Of a stretch of DNA of 56,533 bases, positions 40,214 through 48,256 are shown piece by piece; positions within the stretch are counted from its first letter, which is position 1, and the number at the start of each line of letters is the position of its first letter. Source of the stretch: an uncultured Spirochaetia bacterium (GTDB lineage Bacteria > Oederibacteriota > PGYV01 > CAYTNY01). Both the position numbers and the translations under genes were made by a program. The notes under the pieces are model-generated. The model saw nothing but the letters and a program-made list of their open reading frames with translations, was not told where the DNA came from and did no database searches. The stretch spans positions 1-56,533 of the forward strand of contig CAYTNY010000002.1 of assembly GCA_964439215.1 (NCBI GenBank). Reading direction: 5' to 3'.

Positions 40214-41557
40214 TTATATTATTTCGTCCAGCTTATTTGCTCTGCTTGCTTTCAGAAACAGGGTATCGCCTTTTTTCATTTCATTCTTCAGTATTTTCTT
40301 TAACTTCATTTTGCTTGCAAATATCCGCACATCGCGGTTATCCGCTCCGGCGGTCTCTGCCAGAAAACCTTTCTTCACATAAAGCGCGTACTTCCCGAAA
40401 ATAAAAACTTTTTTCGGATTCAAAGACGCAAGCATCCGCCCCGCTTCAATATGAGCCTTTTCTGATCCTTTTCCCAGTTCAAGCATATCGCCCGTAACCG
40501 TTATTATATTTTTATATCCTTCATCCTTGATTGTTTCCACGGACGCTCTGAAAGAATCCGGATTTGCGTTGTAGGAATCATTTATGACTCTGATTCCGTC
40601 CGAAACTTTTTCATCAAACCGCATTGATCCCTTCATGCTGAATTTCTTCATTGCTTCTGCCGCGTCATTTAATCCGCATCCCAGTACTGAAGCGGCCGCC
40701 GCTGCCGCGGTTATGTTATAAACATTATGTATCCCTTTAAGCTTTGTTCTTATTTTCTTTTTTCTGCCTTTAAAGCATATATCAAACACCGTGTAACTTT
40801 TTTCTCTGCGTATATTTTTCGCGCGGAATATTCCTTTTTTTATTCCAAAACTTATGATTTTTCTGCCGGCGGTTTTTTCCGCGAAATAATCATAATATCT
40901 GTCATCTTTATTCAGCACCACAGCTCCGTTCTTTTTTATTCCGCTTATTATTTCCGCTTTTGCCGCAGCAATACCTTTTACGCCTCTAAAAAAACCCGCA
41001 TGAGCCCTTCCTACATTTGTTATAGCGGCTGTATCGGGTTTTATTATTCTGACCAGACGCGCAATCTCTCCTTTTCTGTTCATCCCGATCTCCGCAACAA
41101 ACACCTGATGCTTCCTTCTTAATCCGAATATTGTAAGAGGAAGCCCTGTATGATTGTTATAACTTCTTATATTTTTATGCACATAATATTTTTCCGCCAT
41201 TATAGCCGCCAGGATTTCCTTGGTGGTTGTCTTGCCGTTGCTTCCTGTTATTGCGGCTGTCTTCAGTTCCGGAAACTTGGAATAATAATATCCCGCCAGT
41301 TCCAGCAGTGCTTTTTTTGTATCCTTTACTTTCAGCATTCCCGGTGCGTCATACATTTCATTGATAATCACCGCTGCTTTTTTTTTCACGGCATTCTTAA
41401 TAAACTTGTGTCCGTCTGTGCTTTCGCCTTTAAGAGCAAAAAACACGCTTCCTTTAACCAGACTTCTGGTATCAATAGATATACCTTTCACACGGCTGTT
41501 CTTTCCTTTATACACTTTTGAAAAAAACTCATAAATTTCTTTAACAGTAAGCTCCAC
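40214..41557 (-). CDS. murF: UDP-MurNAc-tripeptide--D-Ala-D-Ala ligase
   Basis: SIDTR, TGSNGKTT, EIGMN, NDSYNANP, GDMLELG, KASR. Confidence 0.96.
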   Translation of the reverse strand: MELTVKEIYEFFSKVYKGKNSRVKGISIDTRSLVKGSVFFALKGESTDGHKFIKNAVKKKAAVIINEMYDAPGMLKVKDTKKALLELAGYYYSKFPELKTAAITGSNGKTTTKEILAAIMAEKYYVHKNIRSYNNHTGLPLTIFGLRRKHQVFVAEIGMNRKGEIARLVRIIKPDTAAITNVGRAHAGFFRGVKGIAAAKAEIISGIKKNGAVVLNKDDRYYDYFAEKTAGRKIISFGIKKGIFRAKNIRREKSYTVFDICFKGRKKKIRTKLKGIHNVYNITAAAAAASVLGCGLNDAAEAMKKFSMKGSMRFDEKVSDGIRVINDSYNANPDSFRASVETIKDEGYKNIITVTGDMLELGKGSEKAHIEAGRMLASLNPKKVFIFGKYALYVKKGFLAETAGADNRDVRIFASKMKLKKILKNEMKKGDTLFLKASRANKLDEII

Positions 41558-44516
41558 TTTTTCCCTTTCCGGTTCTTTTATTTTTACCGCTGTTTATCCT
41601 CTGTATGGTTCTCATGATTACCGGCCTTTCATCCAATCTTACATACTTTCCCTTTATTTCCTGATAATTGCTGTGCCCTTTTCCTGTAATCAGTACGATA
41701 CCGCCTTTATCCGCGGTTACTATCCCTTTTTCAACAGCTTTTTTCCGGTCATATTCTATCTCTGCTTTTTCGGGGTGTTTCATTCCCGACAGGATCCCTT
41801 TTATAATTGCACTTGGCTCTTCAAACCTCGGATTATCTGTGGTTAAAATAATTCTATCGGCAAGTTTCTCCGCAATCCTTCCCATAATGGGCCTTTTCCC
41901 TTTATCTCTGTTCCCGGACACTCCCAGAACAAGCGTAATATTATTTTCTTTTATCTGGTTGAGCGTCTGAAGCACTTTTTCCAGACCGTCCGGAGTATGC
42001 GCAAAATCCATAAATACCTTCATATCTCCGGAATATACTTTTTCCATGCGCCCTTTAACCCCTTGGAACTTCATGAGTGCTGTTTTTATTTCTTTAAGGT
42101 CCATAAAGCCTTCTAGCGCACCGGCTGCGGCAAGAATATTGTATATATTATGTTCTCCTATAAGCTGTGTTTTAATCTTTATTTTTCTTTTCCCCGATAA
42201 AATCATAAACTCAGAACCTTGCCCGCAAACCCTGCATTCCGCCGCTTTAATATCGTTTTTCCGGCTCTTTATTCCGTACCTGACAATCTCTATATCAGCA
42301 GACCTTATTTTCGAAAATTTTCCGGCGCTGTTCTTGTCATCCGCATTCAGCACCAGTCTGCCGCCGGGCTCTACGGCTTCAGCGATACTCATCTTTACAT
42401 TTATATACTTCCCTATATCCGCATGATAATCCAGATGCTCCCTTGTAATATTTGTTATCACTGCGGTATCAAATTTCAGATTTTCCACACGCCCCTGGTC
42501 CAGGGCATGGGAAGAAACCTCCATAACCAGATATTTCACCCCTGCCCTCAGAGCCTTTTCAGCTATCCTGCAGATTTGAAGTTTTGAAGGCGTTGTATTT
42601 ACCGCCTTATAATTTTTTCTGCCGTCCGAATAATTTATAGTGCCTATGAATGCCGGATTTTTTTTTGTTTTTTCCTTTATTAAAAAGGCGATCAAAGAGG
42701 AAACTGTTGTCTTCCCGTTTGTCCCCGTCACTCCTATTATTTTTATTTTTTCAAGCACCTCTTTGTAATATATATCAATCATACCGGAAAAAGCTTTTTT
42801 TGTATCACTGACCTGTATGACCGTCATTCCTTTCGGCGCCTTTACTTTTTCCTGCACAACTGCGGCGCAGGCTCCGTTTTCAAAAGCTTCGCGTATATAT
42901 TTATGTCCGTTTGTTTTTATGCCTTTCACACATACAAAAACACTCCCTTTTTTCGCGCCGCCCGAAAACTCCTCTATTGAAGATATTTCCGCCATATCAC
43001 TGCCCTGAATAACTTTATAAGAATTCTCATTCCCCAAAATATCAATAAGCCTGGTCCGTCTGTCCTTTACTGCCTTTTCCGCTTCAAAAATGTCATCAAA
43101 CGGATACCGCTTTCCTTTAATCTCCTGATATGTTTCATGCCCTTTGCCCAGTATCACAACGATGTCTTTTTCTCCGGCGTTTTTAACACCGAGACGTATG
43201 GCTTTCCTCCTGTTTGATTCTATTTTAAACTTTTCTTTTTGTTTTATTCCGGAAACAATATCTTTTATTATATTCTCCGGCTTCTCGTCTCTTGGATTAT
43301 CAGAAGTAACTATTATGCGATCGCTGAAATCCCCGGCAATTTTCCCCATGATCATTCTTTTGCCCTTATCCCTGTTTCCGCCGGCGCCAAAGACCGTTAT
43401 TATTTTACCGCTGCCCAGCGCTCTTAATTTCTGCAGGACTTTTTTCATTGAATCCGGGGTATGCGCAAAATCAACGATCACCCTGCATTTTTCTGTTTCA
43501 ATCGTCTCCATCCGTCCTTTTACAGCCTCGAATTTTTTTACTGCCTTCTGCATATCTTTAATATTAACCTTATCGCACACAACACCTGCAGCCGCCATTA
43601 TATTGCTTATGTTATGCTCCCCTATAAGTCTTGTTTTAAATGGATATTGTTTCCCTTCTGTTTCCAGTATAAATTCAGAACCATTCAGGCCTGACTTATG
43701 TTTCAAAACTCTTATATCCGCCTTTTTTCCAAACGAAAAAGTAATTACCTTCACGCCTTTTTTTTCCGCTTCTTTCATAGCCGGAACAAAAGAACTATCG
43801 TCGCGGTTCAGTACAAGAATCCCGCCGTCTTTTATTTTGGATATTATCTTAAGTTTTGATCTTATATAATTATTCCGCGTTCTGTGATAGTCAATATGAT
43901 CCCTGGTGATATTGGTTATCACTGCCGCGTCAAACTTTATGTTTTCAACTCTTCCCTGTGAAAGCGCATGCGAAGAAACCTCCATTATAATATTTTTTAT
44001 TTTTTTCTCCGCGGATCTTCTTATAATCTTATTTACAACAAGATTTGACGGTGTTGTTGTTGCTGCCGGATATTTTTTATTCCCTATTTTATATCCCACT
44101 GTTCCTATTACTGTATTTTCTCCGTGCGTTTTGCTTTTAATCATTGCGTCCGCAATATAGGAAACTGTTGTTTTCCCGTTTGTTCCCGTTATGCCTATGA
44201 CCGATACTTTTCTCCTGTCATCGGCGTATATTTTCTCAACTGCTTTCAAAAGAGCCTTTTTTGTATTTGCTACCCGTATTATATTTATATTTTTATCCCT
44301 GACTGCTGTCTTTTTTTCAACGATTACCGCCCCGGCTTTTTTCCGGGCCGCTTCAGCGGCAAAAATATGCCCGTCTGTTTTAAACCCGCGTATACAGAAA
44401 AAGGCCGAACCTTTTTTTATCTGCTCTGAAGATTCTTCTATTCCGGACACAAACGCTTCATCGGTTCCCTGTTCAACTTTATATTTTATCCCTTCAAGTA
44501 TATCTTTTATTTTCAC
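41541..44516 (-). CDS. murE: Tandem double MurE (two complete UDP-MurNAc-dipeptide--diamino-acid ligase modules in one 991-aa ORF)
   Basis: Two copies each of TGTNGKTT, TTP, MEVSSHAL, HxDYH, GRME, DFAHTPD, GNRDKGKR, DNPR and GKGH. GTG start at 44516 with GGAGG RBS, overlapping the ftsI stop. Junction near 43055. Confidence 0.95.
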   Translation of the reverse strand: MKIKDILEGIKYKVEQGTDEAFVSGIEESSEQIKKGSAFFCIRGFKTDGHIFAAEAARKKAGAVIVEKKTAVRDKNINIIRVANTKKALLKAVEKIYADDRRKVSVIGITGTNGKTTVSYIADAMIKSKTHGENTVIGTVGYKIGNKKYPAATTTPSNLVVNKIIRRSAEKKIKNIIMEVSSHALSQGRVENIKFDAAVITNITRDHIDYHRTRNNYIRSKLKIISKIKDGGILVLNRDDSSFVPAMKEAEKKGVKVITFSFGKKADIRVLKHKSGLNGSEFILETEGKQYPFKTRLIGEHNISNIMAAAGVVCDKVNIKDMQKAVKKFEAVKGRMETIETEKCRVIVDFAHTPDSMKKVLQKLRALGSGKIITVFGAGGNRDKGKRMIMGKIAGDFSDRIIVTSDNPRDEKPENIIKDIVSGIKQKEKFKIESNRRKAIRLGVKNAGEKDIVVILGKGHETYQEIKGKRYPFDDIFEAEKAVKDRRTRLIDILGNENSYKVIQGSDMAEISSIEEFSGGAKKGSVFVCVKGIKTNGHKYIREAFENGACAAVVQEKVKAPKGMTVIQVSDTKKAFSGMIDIYYKEVLEKIKIIGVTGTNGKTTVSSLIAFLIKEKTKKNPAFIGTINYSDGRKNYKAVNTTPSKLQICRIAEKALRAGVKYLVMEVSSHALDQGRVENLKFDTAVITNITREHLDYHADIGKYINVKMSIAEAVEPGGRLVLNADDKNSAGKFSKIRSADIEIVRYGIKSRKNDIKAAECRVCGQGSEFMILSGKRKIKIKTQLIGEHNIYNILAAAGALEGFMDLKEIKTALMKFQGVKGRMEKVYSGDMKVFMDFAHTPDGLEKVLQTLNQIKENNITLVLGVSGNRDKGKRPIMGRIAEKLADRIILTTDNPRFEEPSAIIKGILSGMKHPEKAEIEYDRKKAVEKGIVTADKGGIVLITGKGHSNYQEIKGKYVRLDERPVIMRTIQRINSGKNKRTGKGKSGAYC

Positions 44517-46624
44517 AGGTCCTCCTTCAGCCCAAAACTTACGCTGCATTCGCTTCCTTTTGCGACGGCAACACCCGGTCCGGGTTTCTGCCGCACGGCA
44601 AAGCCGCTGCCCTGCACTTTCACTTTCAATCCCATTTCTTCCATGATCCGGAGTGTCTTTCTTATACTCATGCCTTTTAAATCAGGCATATAAACCCTTA
44701 ATCTGTTTTCATCCAGTTTATCGCCCAGATAAAGATTTATTCTTTCCCCCGGCTCCAATTTAACACCGGGTTCCGGACTCTGTCTTATGACAAAATGCCC
44801 GTATCCATACCGTGAAAAACTTACTTTTTTTTCATTCAGATGATCCCGTACTTCTATATATCTTTTCATTCTCATTTCAGGCACTTGAAAACTGACATAT
44901 GGTTTTTCCTCCGGCGTATCTGCCGATTCAATTTTTCTGCCTGATGTTATTTTCATATATGATATTATATTCTCGCTTATTTTCTTAAAAACAGGGGCAG
45001 CGGCATCGCCGCCGTAATAAACAGGTTTCGGCTCGTCAAGAACCACAAGCGCAAGAACCTTCGCTTTTTCCGCGGGCAGAAACCCCGCAAACGAAGCAAC
45101 ATAGGAGCCTTTCATATATCCCCTCCCGTTTTTTCTGTGCTTTTGAGCGGTTCCTGTTTTCCCCGCGACATTATATCCCGTTATGGCCGCCTTCCTGCCC
45201 GTGCCGTCCTCTTTAACCGCTTCCGAAAGCATATATATAAGACGTTCGTTTATATCTCCGGGAATCAGCCTTTTGCTTCTTCTGTTCCTGCTTTTAAATA
45301 TAACTTTATTATTTCTTTCAATTCTATCTACAATATGCGGATTAATATCATATCCGCCGTTCGCGATTACAGCATAAGCCTTCGCGAGCTGAACGGCTGT
45401 TACCGCAACTTCCTGTCCATACGGAATAGATGTAAGCGTCGTATTGTCCCAATCTCTGTAATGCCTTAAAATCCCCCGGGCCTCTCCGGGTATTTCTATG
45501 CCTGTTTTTTTTCCAAATCCAAATCCGGCATATTCTTTATACAAATTGGACTGCTTCAATCTTAATGCAATATTTACCATGCCTATATTTGAGGAATACT
45601 TTATTACCTCCGGAAGCGTAAGCCATTCGTATTCTTCGTGGTCATTTACATTTCGGTCAAAAAACATCTGCCTGCCGGAGCCGCAATGTACCTTATAATC
45701 CTTTACGTCCTTAAATTCCCTCAGAAACGCCGACATAGTAAATATTTTAAAAGTGGAACCCGGTTCAAATATATCCACTACAGCCGTATTTCTTCTTGCG
45801 GCATTGGAATAATCGCCGAAATTATTCAGATCAAAAGCAGGGTAATTCGCCAGCGCAAGTATGGCCCCTGTATCCGGTTCCATAATTATAACACTCCCTT
45901 TTTCGGCGTTATATTTTTCCGCTATTTTATTTAATTCTTTCTCCGCAAAACGCTGGATAGTTGCATCGAGAGTAAGATAAACATCCGCGCCTTTTTCCGC
46001 TTTCTTTATATTTACAGGTTTAAGATTTATCGCCCTTCTTCTTGCATCCCTTCTGATAACCGTTCTGCCTGTTTTTCCGCGCAGATATTTTTCCATTTCT
46101 CGTTCTATCCCTTCAAGACCTTTATTATCCATGCCCGCAAATCCTATTACATGCGCAGCCGTATCTCCCAGCGGATAGAATCTTTTTTCTTCACTTTGAG
46201 AAAAAATACCCTTTATTCCCGCATTCAGAATCTCATCCGCGGTTTCAGGATTTACTTTTCTCTTGATATAAGAAAAACTTCTGTATCCGGATATCTTCCT
46301 GTATGCCGCTCCATAAGATATACCCAGTTTATGAGCAAGCAGATTTGCCGCCTTTTTTTTATTTTTTATAAGCATTGGCGCGGCGCATATGGATTCTGTT
46401 CTTACGCTCATTGCCAGTGTTCTTCCGTTTCGGTCAAATATATTCCCTCTTCCATACTGCTTCTTTTCAGTTGAAAGATGCATTGCGCGGGCTTTCCTTT
46501 TAAAAAAGTCATGTTTTATGACCTGCAGCCAGATAAGCCTTGCCGCAACCAGAGCCATAATGATCACAAAAAAACCGAATACAAACTCTATTCTTCTGTT
46601 GCAGCTTTTCTGCGTATCTTTCAT
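44513..46624 (-). CDS. ftsI: Class B penicillin-binding protein FtsI with two C-terminal PASTA-like domains
   Basis: RGNIFDRNG, RFYP, EPGSTFK (SxxK), SSN, GKTGTAQ, VPEM.../MPDLKG...QKPGPG. Confidence 0.96.
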   Translation of the reverse strand: MKDTQKSCNRRIEFVFGFFVIIMALVAARLIWLQVIKHDFFKRKARAMHLSTEKKQYGRGNIFDRNGRTLAMSVRTESICAAPMLIKNKKKAANLLAHKLGISYGAAYRKISGYRSFSYIKRKVNPETADEILNAGIKGIFSQSEEKRFYPLGDTAAHVIGFAGMDNKGLEGIEREMEKYLRGKTGRTVIRRDARRRAINLKPVNIKKAEKGADVYLTLDATIQRFAEKELNKIAEKYNAEKGSVIIMEPDTGAILALANYPAFDLNNFGDYSNAARRNTAVVDIFEPGSTFKIFTMSAFLREFKDVKDYKVHCGSGRQMFFDRNVNDHEEYEWLTLPEVIKYSSNIGMVNIALRLKQSNLYKEYAGFGFGKKTGIEIPGEARGILRHYRDWDNTTLTSIPYGQEVAVTAVQLAKAYAVIANGGYDINPHIVDRIERNNKVIFKSRNRRSKRLIPGDINERLIYMLSEAVKEDGTGRKAAITGYNVAGKTGTAQKHRKNGRGYMKGSYVASFAGFLPAEKAKVLALVVLDEPKPVYYGGDAAAPVFKKISENIISYMKITSGRKIESADTPEEKPYVSFQVPEMRMKRYIEVRDHLNEKKVSFSRYGYGHFVIRQSPEPGVKLEPGERINLYLGDKLDENRLRVYMPDLKGMSIRKTLRIMEEMGLKVKVQGSGFAVRQKPGPGVAVAKGSECSVSFGLKEDL

Positions 46625-47036: not shown

Positions 47037-47918
47037 TTATGTTTTTTCGGCCGCGCGGAGTTTTGCGCTTCTGGACCTTGGATTAACCCGTTTTTCATCA
47101 TCAGCCGGGCGCACCGGCTTCTTTGTCAATACCAGAAGTTCTCCGCCGTTTTTATTCATATTTTTTTTAAAAAAATTCTTCACAATTCTGTCTTCCAGGG
47201 AATGGAACGATATAACGCATATCCTCGCGCCTTTCCCCAGATACGGCAAAACAGCAGCAAGGCTGTTTTCAATCTCATTAAGTTCATCATTAACTTCAAT
47301 CCTTATCCCCTGAAAAACTTTTGTCGCCGGGTGTATCTTTTCCATGCCTTTTTTTGCGTCTGCAATTATTTCCGCAAGTTCTCCCGTTGTTTTAACGGGC
47401 CTGCGCCTCATTATCGCGGATACAATTCTTTCATACTGCCATTCTTCTCCGTAATCACGCAGCACCCTTTCAAGATCCGCTCTATTATATGAGTTCACAA
47501 CATCATACGCCGTGAGCCCGGATTTCCTGTTCATTCTCATATCAAGCGGTGCGTCAGCGGAAAACGAAAATCCTCTTTTTGCACTGTCAAAATGCAGGCT
47601 GGATACTCCAAGATCATATATTATTCCGTTTATCTGCTCTATCCCTCTTTTGCTTAAAACTCCGGCAATTTCCGAGAACTCCGAATGAATTACTTCGGCG
47701 TTTGTATGTTTTTTAAGCCTTTCCCGGGTTATTTCAAGAGCCTGTTCGTCCCTGTCCATACTTAGCAAAACGGCTTCGTCCGACATATTTTCCAGTATTT
47801 TCTCACTATGTCCTCCGAAGCCCGCTGTTGCATCTACCCAGACGCCTTTTTTTTCTTTTACAACATCCAGATATTGTATTGTTTCTCCGAGCAATACACT
47901 TTTATGCTCTATTGTCAT
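47037..47918 (-). CDS. rsmH: 16S rRNA m4C1402 methyltransferase
   Basis: HKSVLL, DATAGFGGHS, DLGVSS, PLDMRM, HPATKVFQGIRI, SFHSLEDR, NPRSRSAKLR. Confidence 0.98.
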   Translation of the reverse strand: MTIEHKSVLLGETIQYLDVVKEKKGVWVDATAGFGGHSEKILENMSDEAVLLSMDRDEQALEITRERLKKHTNAEVIHSEFSEIAGVLSKRGIEQINGIIYDLGVSSLHFDSAKRGFSFSADAPLDMRMNRKSGLTAYDVVNSYNRADLERVLRDYGEEWQYERIVSAIMRRRPVKTTGELAEIIADAKKGMEKIHPATKVFQGIRIEVNDELNEIENSLAAVLPYLGKGARICVISFHSLEDRIVKNFFKKNMNKNGGELLVLTKKPVRPADDEKRVNPRSRSAKLRAAEKT

Positions 47919-48256
47919 ATAAGGCTTGAAAAAGCCATTATTGCCTCTTCTTCGTTGTTGTAGAATTCAAATTCACCCCAGTAACCCGCATATATAAACA
48001 GGTTTCTGACGTATTCGCTGCTTCCGATTATTTTTATGTCGCCTCCGAGGTTTCTGGCTCTTTCTTTCCTTTCATTAAGATATTCAATTCCGCTTACATT
48101 CAGATGGGTGACCCCGGAAAAATCCAGGACAAAGAAAAACTGTTCCTGTTCTATACATGAACTGATTATGCCTTTCAGCGCCAGTATATCTTCTATGTCA
48201 ATTTCCCCTTTTAGTATAAGAAGCACCGCTTTTTTACTTGAAGTCTTTACGCTCAT
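47915..48256 (-). CDS. STAS-domain protein (anti-sigma-factor antagonist-like)
   Basis: LKGEIDI...VLDFSGVTHLNVSGIEYL...GGDIKII...VRNLF...EEEAI; AGGAG RBS; stop overlaps the rsmH start. Confidence 0.9.
   Translation of the reverse strand: MSVKTSSKKAVLLILKGEIDIEDILALKGIISSCIEQEQFFFVLDFSGVTHLNVSGIEYLNERKERARNLGGDIKIIGSSEYVRNLFIYAGYWGEFEFYNNEEEAIMAFSSLI

Follow-up and report, generated by a model that had tools for sequence, protein, structure and literature searches.

The murE-murE fusion and its locus

Here, we analysed a 56,533-nucleotide stretch of DNA (the window; contig CAYTNY010000002.1 of GenBank assembly GCA_964439215.1) from an uncultured Spirochaetia bacterium of the GTDB phylum Oederibacteriota. 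Its division and cell wall (dcw) cluster encodes a polypeptide, P0001, in which two MurE ligases are fused head to tail. The cluster lies on the minus strand and comprises, in order, rsmH, an ftsL-like gene, ftsI, the murE-murE fusion, murF, mraY, murD, ftsW, murG, murC, murB and ddl. The fusion, its two modules and its direct neighbours are:

41541-44549, minus strand: murE-murE fusion gene (P0001, 1002 amino acids), the open reading frame between ftsI and murF in the dcw cluster
43056-44549, minus strand: module 1 (residues 1-498), a canonical MurE of the meso-diaminopimelic acid (meso-DAP) type; NF001126, 505.6 bits
41544-43055, minus strand: module 2 (residues 499-1002), a complete MurE with an altered side-chain pocket; NF001126, 488.3 bits
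44513-46624, minus strand: ftsI, flanking the fusion
40214-41557, minus strand: murF, whose start overlaps the 3' end of the fusion by 17 nucleotides

Each of the Mur ligase N, M and C domains (Pfam PF01225, PF08245 and PF02875) was found twice in P0001. The NCBIfam equivalog model for meso-DAP-adding MurE, NF001126 (cutoff 373), matched both modules end to end at the scores listed above, covering model positions 9-483 of 486 in module 2, while TIGR01085 (cutoff 257.3) gave 474.5 bits for module 1 and 455.9 bits for module 2. The two modules are 46% identical to each other. NCBI lists the same protein as a 991-amino-acid call from a metagenome-assembled genome (MAG) of Candidatus Goldiibacteriota. 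The division transpeptidase FtsI encoded next to the fusion has two C-terminal PASTA domains.

Module 1 carries the P-loop GTNGKTT, EVSSHAL.QGR, DH.DYH, FGAGGNRD (residues 387-394) and the equivalent of E. coli Lys224, a residue that is carbamylated in MurE. Module 2 keeps GTNGKTT, NTTP, EVSSHALDQGR, EH.DYH, VKMS (with the Lys224 equivalent), DFAHTPD and Arg389. The catalytic set, i.e. the P-loop GxxGK(T/S), Glu182, His210/His214, Lys224 and His359, is complete in module 2 and invariant in the comparison set described below. Architecture, curated score and catalytic residues all place module 2 in the MurE family. The positions that matter for the following argument are:

43290-43301, minus strand: module 1 DNPR motif, residues 417-420
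43134-43148, minus strand: module 1 GKGHE motif, residues 468-472 (GKGHET, 468-473)
42705-42725, minus strand: module 2 ATP-binding P-loop motif GTNGKTT, residues 609-615, intact
41904-41927, minus strand: module 2 LGVSGNRD, residues 875-882, with Ser878 at the Gly386 position and Arg881, the Arg389 equivalent, kept
41826-41837, minus strand: module 2 DNPR, residues 905-908, codons GAT AAT CCG AGG, retained
41667-41687, minus strand: module 2 TGKGHSN loop, residues 955-961, of which GKGHSN (956-961; 41667-41684) is encoded by GGA AAA GGG CAC AGC AAT
41670-41672, minus strand: module 2 AGC codon of Ser960, which stands at the position of E. coli Glu468 in the profile alignment

A reading of the window made beforehand from the sequence only had contrasted DNPR, GKGHSN and LGVSGNRD in module 2 (AGC read at 41672-41670) with DNPR, GKGHET and FGAGGNRD in module 1, and all of these letters are found where it placed them. 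Thr955, which replaces the usual Ala463, has to be added to the differences in module 2.

Loss of an otherwise invariant glutamate

In meso-DAP-adding MurE, the distal amine of the incoming amino acid is bound by Asp413 together with Glu468, and the carboxylate at its D-centre by Asn414 together with Arg416 (PMC3829189), which agrees with the roles in binding the free end of DAP that the sequence-only reading had assigned to DNPR and Glu468. To assess how unusual the changes in module 2 are, MurE-grade modules from three database searches were aligned to one hidden Markov model (HMM), and columns were mapped to the E. coli numbering of 1E8C via the chain of 7B6O, with the offset of 2 checked on Lys119, Glu182, Lys224, Asp413 and Glu468. 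Outside the fusion family, the comparison set held 466 modules from 462 proteins, all of them DNPR-type relatives; it consists of the nearest few hundred cluster representatives and is not the whole MurE family.

Position 468 is Glu in 465 of 465 ordinary modules (one further module is gapped there). GKGHS, whose frequent occurrence in ordinary meso-DAP-type MurE would have refuted the sequence-only reading, was accordingly found in none of the 465 as sampled here. The remaining pocket positions are nearly as uniform, with Arg at 416 in 464, Pro at 415 in 459, Gly at 386 in 454 and Arg at 389 in 460 of the 466 modules; Gly386 is replaced by S, A or P in every second module of the fusions. The solved Lys-type enzymes also retain the glutamate (Glu460 in S. 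aureus; GRGHE in T. maritima).

Only nine other clusters of this clade's MurE-MurE fusions were recovered from a collection of 5.8 billion proteins. They fall into group A, comprising P0001 from this genome together with P0004 and P0010, and group B, comprising P0003, P0005-P0009 and the P0011 cluster, members of which occur on numerous contigs of different origin. When module 2 of P0004 served as the seed of a third database search, no additional group-A fusions came up, and a contig scan with the fusion alignment, which relies on generic MurE patterns, yielded solely loci of other phyla with an ordinary MurE or with MurE plus MurF, and no Goldbacteria. Every fusion carries DNPR and GKGHE in module 1, and the second modules read:

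This genome (group A): LGVSGNRD, DNPR, TGKGHS
P0004 and P0010 (group A): FGAAGNRD, DNPR, TGKGHQ
Group B, every member: FGAPGNRD, DNTE or DNAE, GKGHE

Ser at position 468 is thus private to this genome, the two nearest fusions P0004 and P0010 having Gln, and the Ala463 to Thr change is common to all three second modules of group A. Conservation of the serine in orthologous fusions, which the earlier reading had proposed to check, does not hold, as six further fusion clusters (group B) even keep the Glu along with DNTE or DNAE; what does hold is that the pocket is altered in every second module. Across these sequences, the common denominator of all second modules is an altered amino-acid pocket and, within group A, the loss of the acidic residue.

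At conserved positions, the changes specific to second modules lie in this pocket. In ordinary MurE, 94 columns are conserved to 80% or more, and among them Glu468 alone departs from the consensus in both second modules of group A and in neither of their first modules, which bears out the earlier statement that the Glu is lost in module 2 only. Analogous second-module-only columns in group B are limited to Gly386, Pro415 and Arg416, and all four positions lie in the amino-acid pocket. Over the 94 columns, module 2 deviates at 15 and module 1 at 10. Between P0001 and P0004, second modules are 47.9% and first modules 48.4% identical, and in group B the identity between second modules of different genomes equals or exceeds that between first modules. 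Module 2 is under purifying selection. By these comparisons, its pattern is that of a working enzyme with a changed specificity pocket and not that of decay.

Group-B first modules are not free of changes either: those of P0003 and P0005-P0009 (e.g. L001 10001-12940) all have N117K in the P-loop (GTKGKTT), and those other than P0003 and P0006 also have H186Q/E and R389K, positions at which their second modules keep the consensus. At the level of these residues, divergence between the modules of group B is reciprocal.

Independent assemblies contain the fusion

Since the window stems from a MAG, the feature might have been an error of sequencing or assembly, or a chimera in which murE genes of two strains were joined. 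The codon AGC is three base changes away from either Glu codon, GAA or GAG, and is therefore not the result of a single-base error. Moreover, Logan contigs from four microbial-mat metagenome runs of two studies contain the fusion sequence. A 32-kb contig from one run, with a depth of about 33, shows 0 differences across the whole fusion gene; contigs from a run of the other study show 0 differences over 41541-41860, which includes the Ser codon and DNPR, and over 42544-43313, which includes the module junction; a third run shows 0 differences over 41541-41737. Independent assemblies thus share an identical Ser codon and an identical junction, and we therefore regard both the fusion and the Ser codon as real. 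The nine other fusion clusters, which show matching architecture and synteny, speak against an artefact as well. Taken together, sequencing or assembly error, which the sequence-only reading had itself listed as a possible cause of the serine, was rejected as far as agreement between assemblies can show, and we give the artefact virtually no weight.

Structure model and comparison with known Mur ligases

An AlphaFold2 model based on ten sequences folds both modules with confidence (mean predicted local distance difference test score 82.6), leaving disordered only residues 1-8 and 990-1002, and it matches solved MurE structures with template modelling (TM) scores of 0.85-0.91. Residues 990-1002 (41541-41582) form a Lys/Gly-rich tail, NSGKNKRTGKGKSGAYC, which is absent from all orthologues.

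With the meso-DAP-adding MurE of E. coli (1E8C; TM 0.85-0.87), P0001 has in common the P-loop, the carbamyl-Lys position, Arg389, DNPR and the place in the dcw cluster between ftsI and murF. It differs in carrying two copies per chain, the second of which has Ser for Glu468, Gly386Ser and Ala463Thr. The best fold match is the L-Lys-adding MurE of S. aureus (4C12; TM 0.91) and the best PDB sequence match that of T. maritima (4BUB), and these enzymes set a precedent for changes in the DNPR/Glu pocket that accompany a change of the amino acid at position 3. The textbook switch from the DAP-type to the Lys-type pocket removes Arg416 and keeps Glu. The Lys-type enzyme accordingly has DNPA and retains Glu460, which is essential for Lys binding (PMC3829189), whereas module 2 shows the opposite, with Arg kept and Glu lost. 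By its motifs, module 2 matches neither subtype in full: it has the DNPR of meso-DAP-type enzymes and Ser960 in place of the Glu of GKGHE, and it shows neither D(D/N)P(N/A) nor the retained Glu460 of the L-Lys type. Second modules of group B (DNTE plus Glu) are closer to Lys-type logic.

Two Mur ligases per chain within the dcw cluster are also found in the common MurE-MurF fusions (solved structure PDB 8F5D; NF008896), hundreds of which appeared among the database matches, and 8F5D is the top whole-chain Foldseek match of the model. Those fusions, however, join consecutive steps, whereas P0001 joins two paralogues of the same step and is followed by a separate murF. Another double MurE-like family (P0257, P0407, P0409, P0412 and P0414) likewise has two modules in about 980 amino acids; it is only 27-31% identical, is unrelated to the Goldbacteria clade and has degenerate motifs (DYY for DYH, and GTMYE for GKGHE in module 1), while keeping Glu468. 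Its member P0414 (L089 7001-9955) adjoins the alanine racemase gene alr and lies near murG-murC-murB. Within the literature covered, searches on MurE-MurE fusions, a second MurE and Goldbacteria peptidoglycan yielded nothing relevant; what has been reported as a 'second murE' from Streptomycetaceae belongs to DUF1727 and, in our view, to the MurT type, and was set aside. Relative to the MurE enzymes compared here, the features that stand out on the level of motifs and gene architecture are the tandem pair for one and the same step, and a Glu468 lost while Arg416 is kept.

Origin and history of the second module

Fusion genomes (P0008 and P0003) and genomes of relatives with a single MurE (P0130, P0127, P0124 and P0125) have a common gene order, including an unusual STAS-domain gene between mraZ and rsmH, and in the single-MurE genomes one canonical MurE is followed directly by MurF. 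Related genomes of identical synteny hence manage with one canonical MurE, and the second module is therefore an add-on and not the essential copy. The STAS gene, encoding 113-115 amino acids, was present at this place in every related locus fetched, be it with a single MurE or a fusion, and represents a conserved signature of the lineage in its dcw cluster and no private insertion:

Window, 47915-48256: STAS gene
L001, 5861-6202: STAS gene
L003, 3843-4184: STAS gene
L004, 4195-4536: STAS gene
L086, 2197-2544: STAS gene
L087, 1487-1828: STAS gene

In the genome of P0008 (L001 1-2153), five small genes are arrayed upstream of the dcw cluster, four of them with weak DUF1540 hits.

Trees of the individual modules placed every first and every second module, together with twelve or thirteen single MurEs, in one clade with 100% support. 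Within this clade, first and second modules of group A pair with each other (87/95), second modules of group B form a clade of their own (100/100), and first modules of group B, save that of P0003, sit with the single MurEs P0124 and P0126. Second modules were monophyletic in 0 of 200 bootstraps; the approximately unbiased (AU) test did not quite reject their monophyly (p = 0.074). In a tree of FtsI, MurF and MraY, the fusion genome of P0008 (L001) is sister to the single-MurE genome of P0124 (L087) with 100/100 support. As the MurE of P0124 also groups with first modules of group B, this points to a secondary loss of the second module that left ftsI-murE-murF behind, and the sister placement implies more than one event of gain, loss or both in the history of the second module. 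Overall, the second module looks like an accessory.

Proposed function and alternatives

But, why should a bacterium that already has a canonical MurE fuse a second one to it and change a pocket residue that is otherwise invariant? The explanation that we favour, with moderate confidence, is that murE was duplicated in tandem in place and then fused within a Goldbacteria-like lineage, with module 1 remaining the housekeeping meso-DAP-adding MurE and module 2 being an active ligase with a retuned side-chain pocket. In module 2, the ATP site, the acyl-phosphate chemistry and the nucleotide-dipeptide site would be unchanged, and only the pocket for the far end of the amino acid would differ, here through the exchanges E468S, A463T and G386S with Asp413, Asn414 and Arg416 kept. 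With the carboxylate that pairs with the distal ammonium gone, weaker binding of meso-DAP and Lys would be expected, and the favoured substrate would offer a distal carboxylate to Asn414 and Arg416 and present no ammonium to position 468. Very tentatively, such a substrate might be another stereoisomer or a derivative of DAP, or an amino-dicarboxylate. Module 2 thus probably adds, or prefers, an amino acid other than that of module 1. One polypeptide, with its two active sites fixed at 1:1, would then supply MurF with two kinds of tripeptide precursor, and the MurF encoded downstream would need to accept the products of both modules.

The loss of Glu in module 2 only, as the sole specific deviation among 94 columns, fits a divergence aimed at the specificity pocket. 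To that extent, the functional divergence predicted by the sequence-only reading is supported; the activity of module 2, a specificity unlike that of module 1 and the kind of substrate it might use are what we infer from this pattern. Several points weigh against our explanation. The residue at 468 varies, with S in one species but Q in its relatives, and a relaxed constraint on the site could likewise account for this. With P0010 and P0004 being 88% identical, group A comprises no more than two independent sequences. Some residual meso-DAP activity is plausible since DNPR, Asp413 and Arg389 remain, and MurE pockets can discriminate less than their motifs suggest, as a study on the S. aureus enzyme illustrates (PMC3829189).

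Some of these points also speak for another account, in our estimate rather unlikely, in which module 2 is a redundant and weaker meso-DAP ligase kept for dosage, position 468 drifting to S or Q because module 1 covers the essential function. The retained DNPR, Asp413 and Arg389, the unfixed residue 468 in group A and the loss of module 2 in at least one lineage (P0124, beside the fusion P0008) would all suit it. Drift, however, should hit many sites, yet of the conserved columns Glu468 alone changed specifically in module 2, which moreover evolves as slowly as module 1, and every member of group B fixes different but equally pocket-specific changes. A drifting glutamate would also come at a high price, given that the equivalent E460A exchange leaves S. 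aureus MurE nearly inactive (Km >20 mM, turnover 3.2 per min; PMC3829189). If activity were lost altogether, module 2 could serve as a scaffold or sensor that binds the nucleotide precursor or partner proteins, in the manner of PAP11, the MurE-like protein of the plant plastid RNA polymerase. Non-enzymatic roles are indeed known for proteins with a MurE fold (PDB 8r5o and 8w9z were among the matches) and an invariant substrate-binding residue is missing, but we consider such a role highly improbable: a PAP11-type pseudoenzyme would be expected to lack catalytic or ATP-binding residues, the P-loop or metal ligands normally being lost before anything else, while all those checked are intact in module 2. 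It deviates in only 15 of 94 conserved columns, compared with 10 for module 1, and its divergence between genomes matches that of module 1.

The change might, finally, concern the acceptor or the product and not the amino acid. Module 2 could act after module 1, or on another carboxylate, for instance the free one of DAP or the alpha-carboxyl of D-Glu, or make a product unrelated to peptidoglycan. Mur-ligase folds have been recruited for reactions of this kind, with MurT, cyanophycin synthetase and CfbE appearing as weaker family matches, and a fusion would suit consecutive steps. Against this stand a score of a full MurE equivalog (488 bits versus a cutoff of 373), unchanged contacts of the central domain to the UDP-N-acetylmuramyl-dipeptide (TTP, SSHAL.QGR) and the fact that the sole specific changes lie in the pocket for the incoming amino acid, so that we deem a different acceptor or product unlikely.

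Implications

Returning to a retuned amino-acid pocket in module 2, group B appears to have taken another direction. Its pocket shifts the opposite way electrostatically, with Arg416 replaced by Glu and Glu468 kept, and resembles Lys- or Orn-type logic as far as the motifs allow this comparison; the opposite change suggests that groups A and B do not share one new substrate. A bolder idea, which we find doubtful, is that Goldbacteria-like peptidoglycan contains two different residues at position 3, both added by one two-site polypeptide, and that the second specificity was invented twice, once by E468S/Q and once by DNPR to DNTE together with Gly386 to Pro. If true, each electrostatic route would imply a different non-DAP substrate, and duplication with fusion may have happened twice independently.

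MurE sets the amino acid at position 3 of the stem peptide, a residue through which cross-links are made and which innate immune receptors and many cell-wall enzymes recognise. To our knowledge, a bacterium normally has a single MurE, and where the wall chemistry is mixed, this stems from loose specificity of the enzyme. With the side-chain pocket altered in just the second copy, a fixed tandem pair would represent a natural experiment on the determinants of MurE specificity in which the parts played by Glu468 and Arg416 can be told apart, and it predicts a so far unreported dual-chemistry wall in an uncultured phylum.

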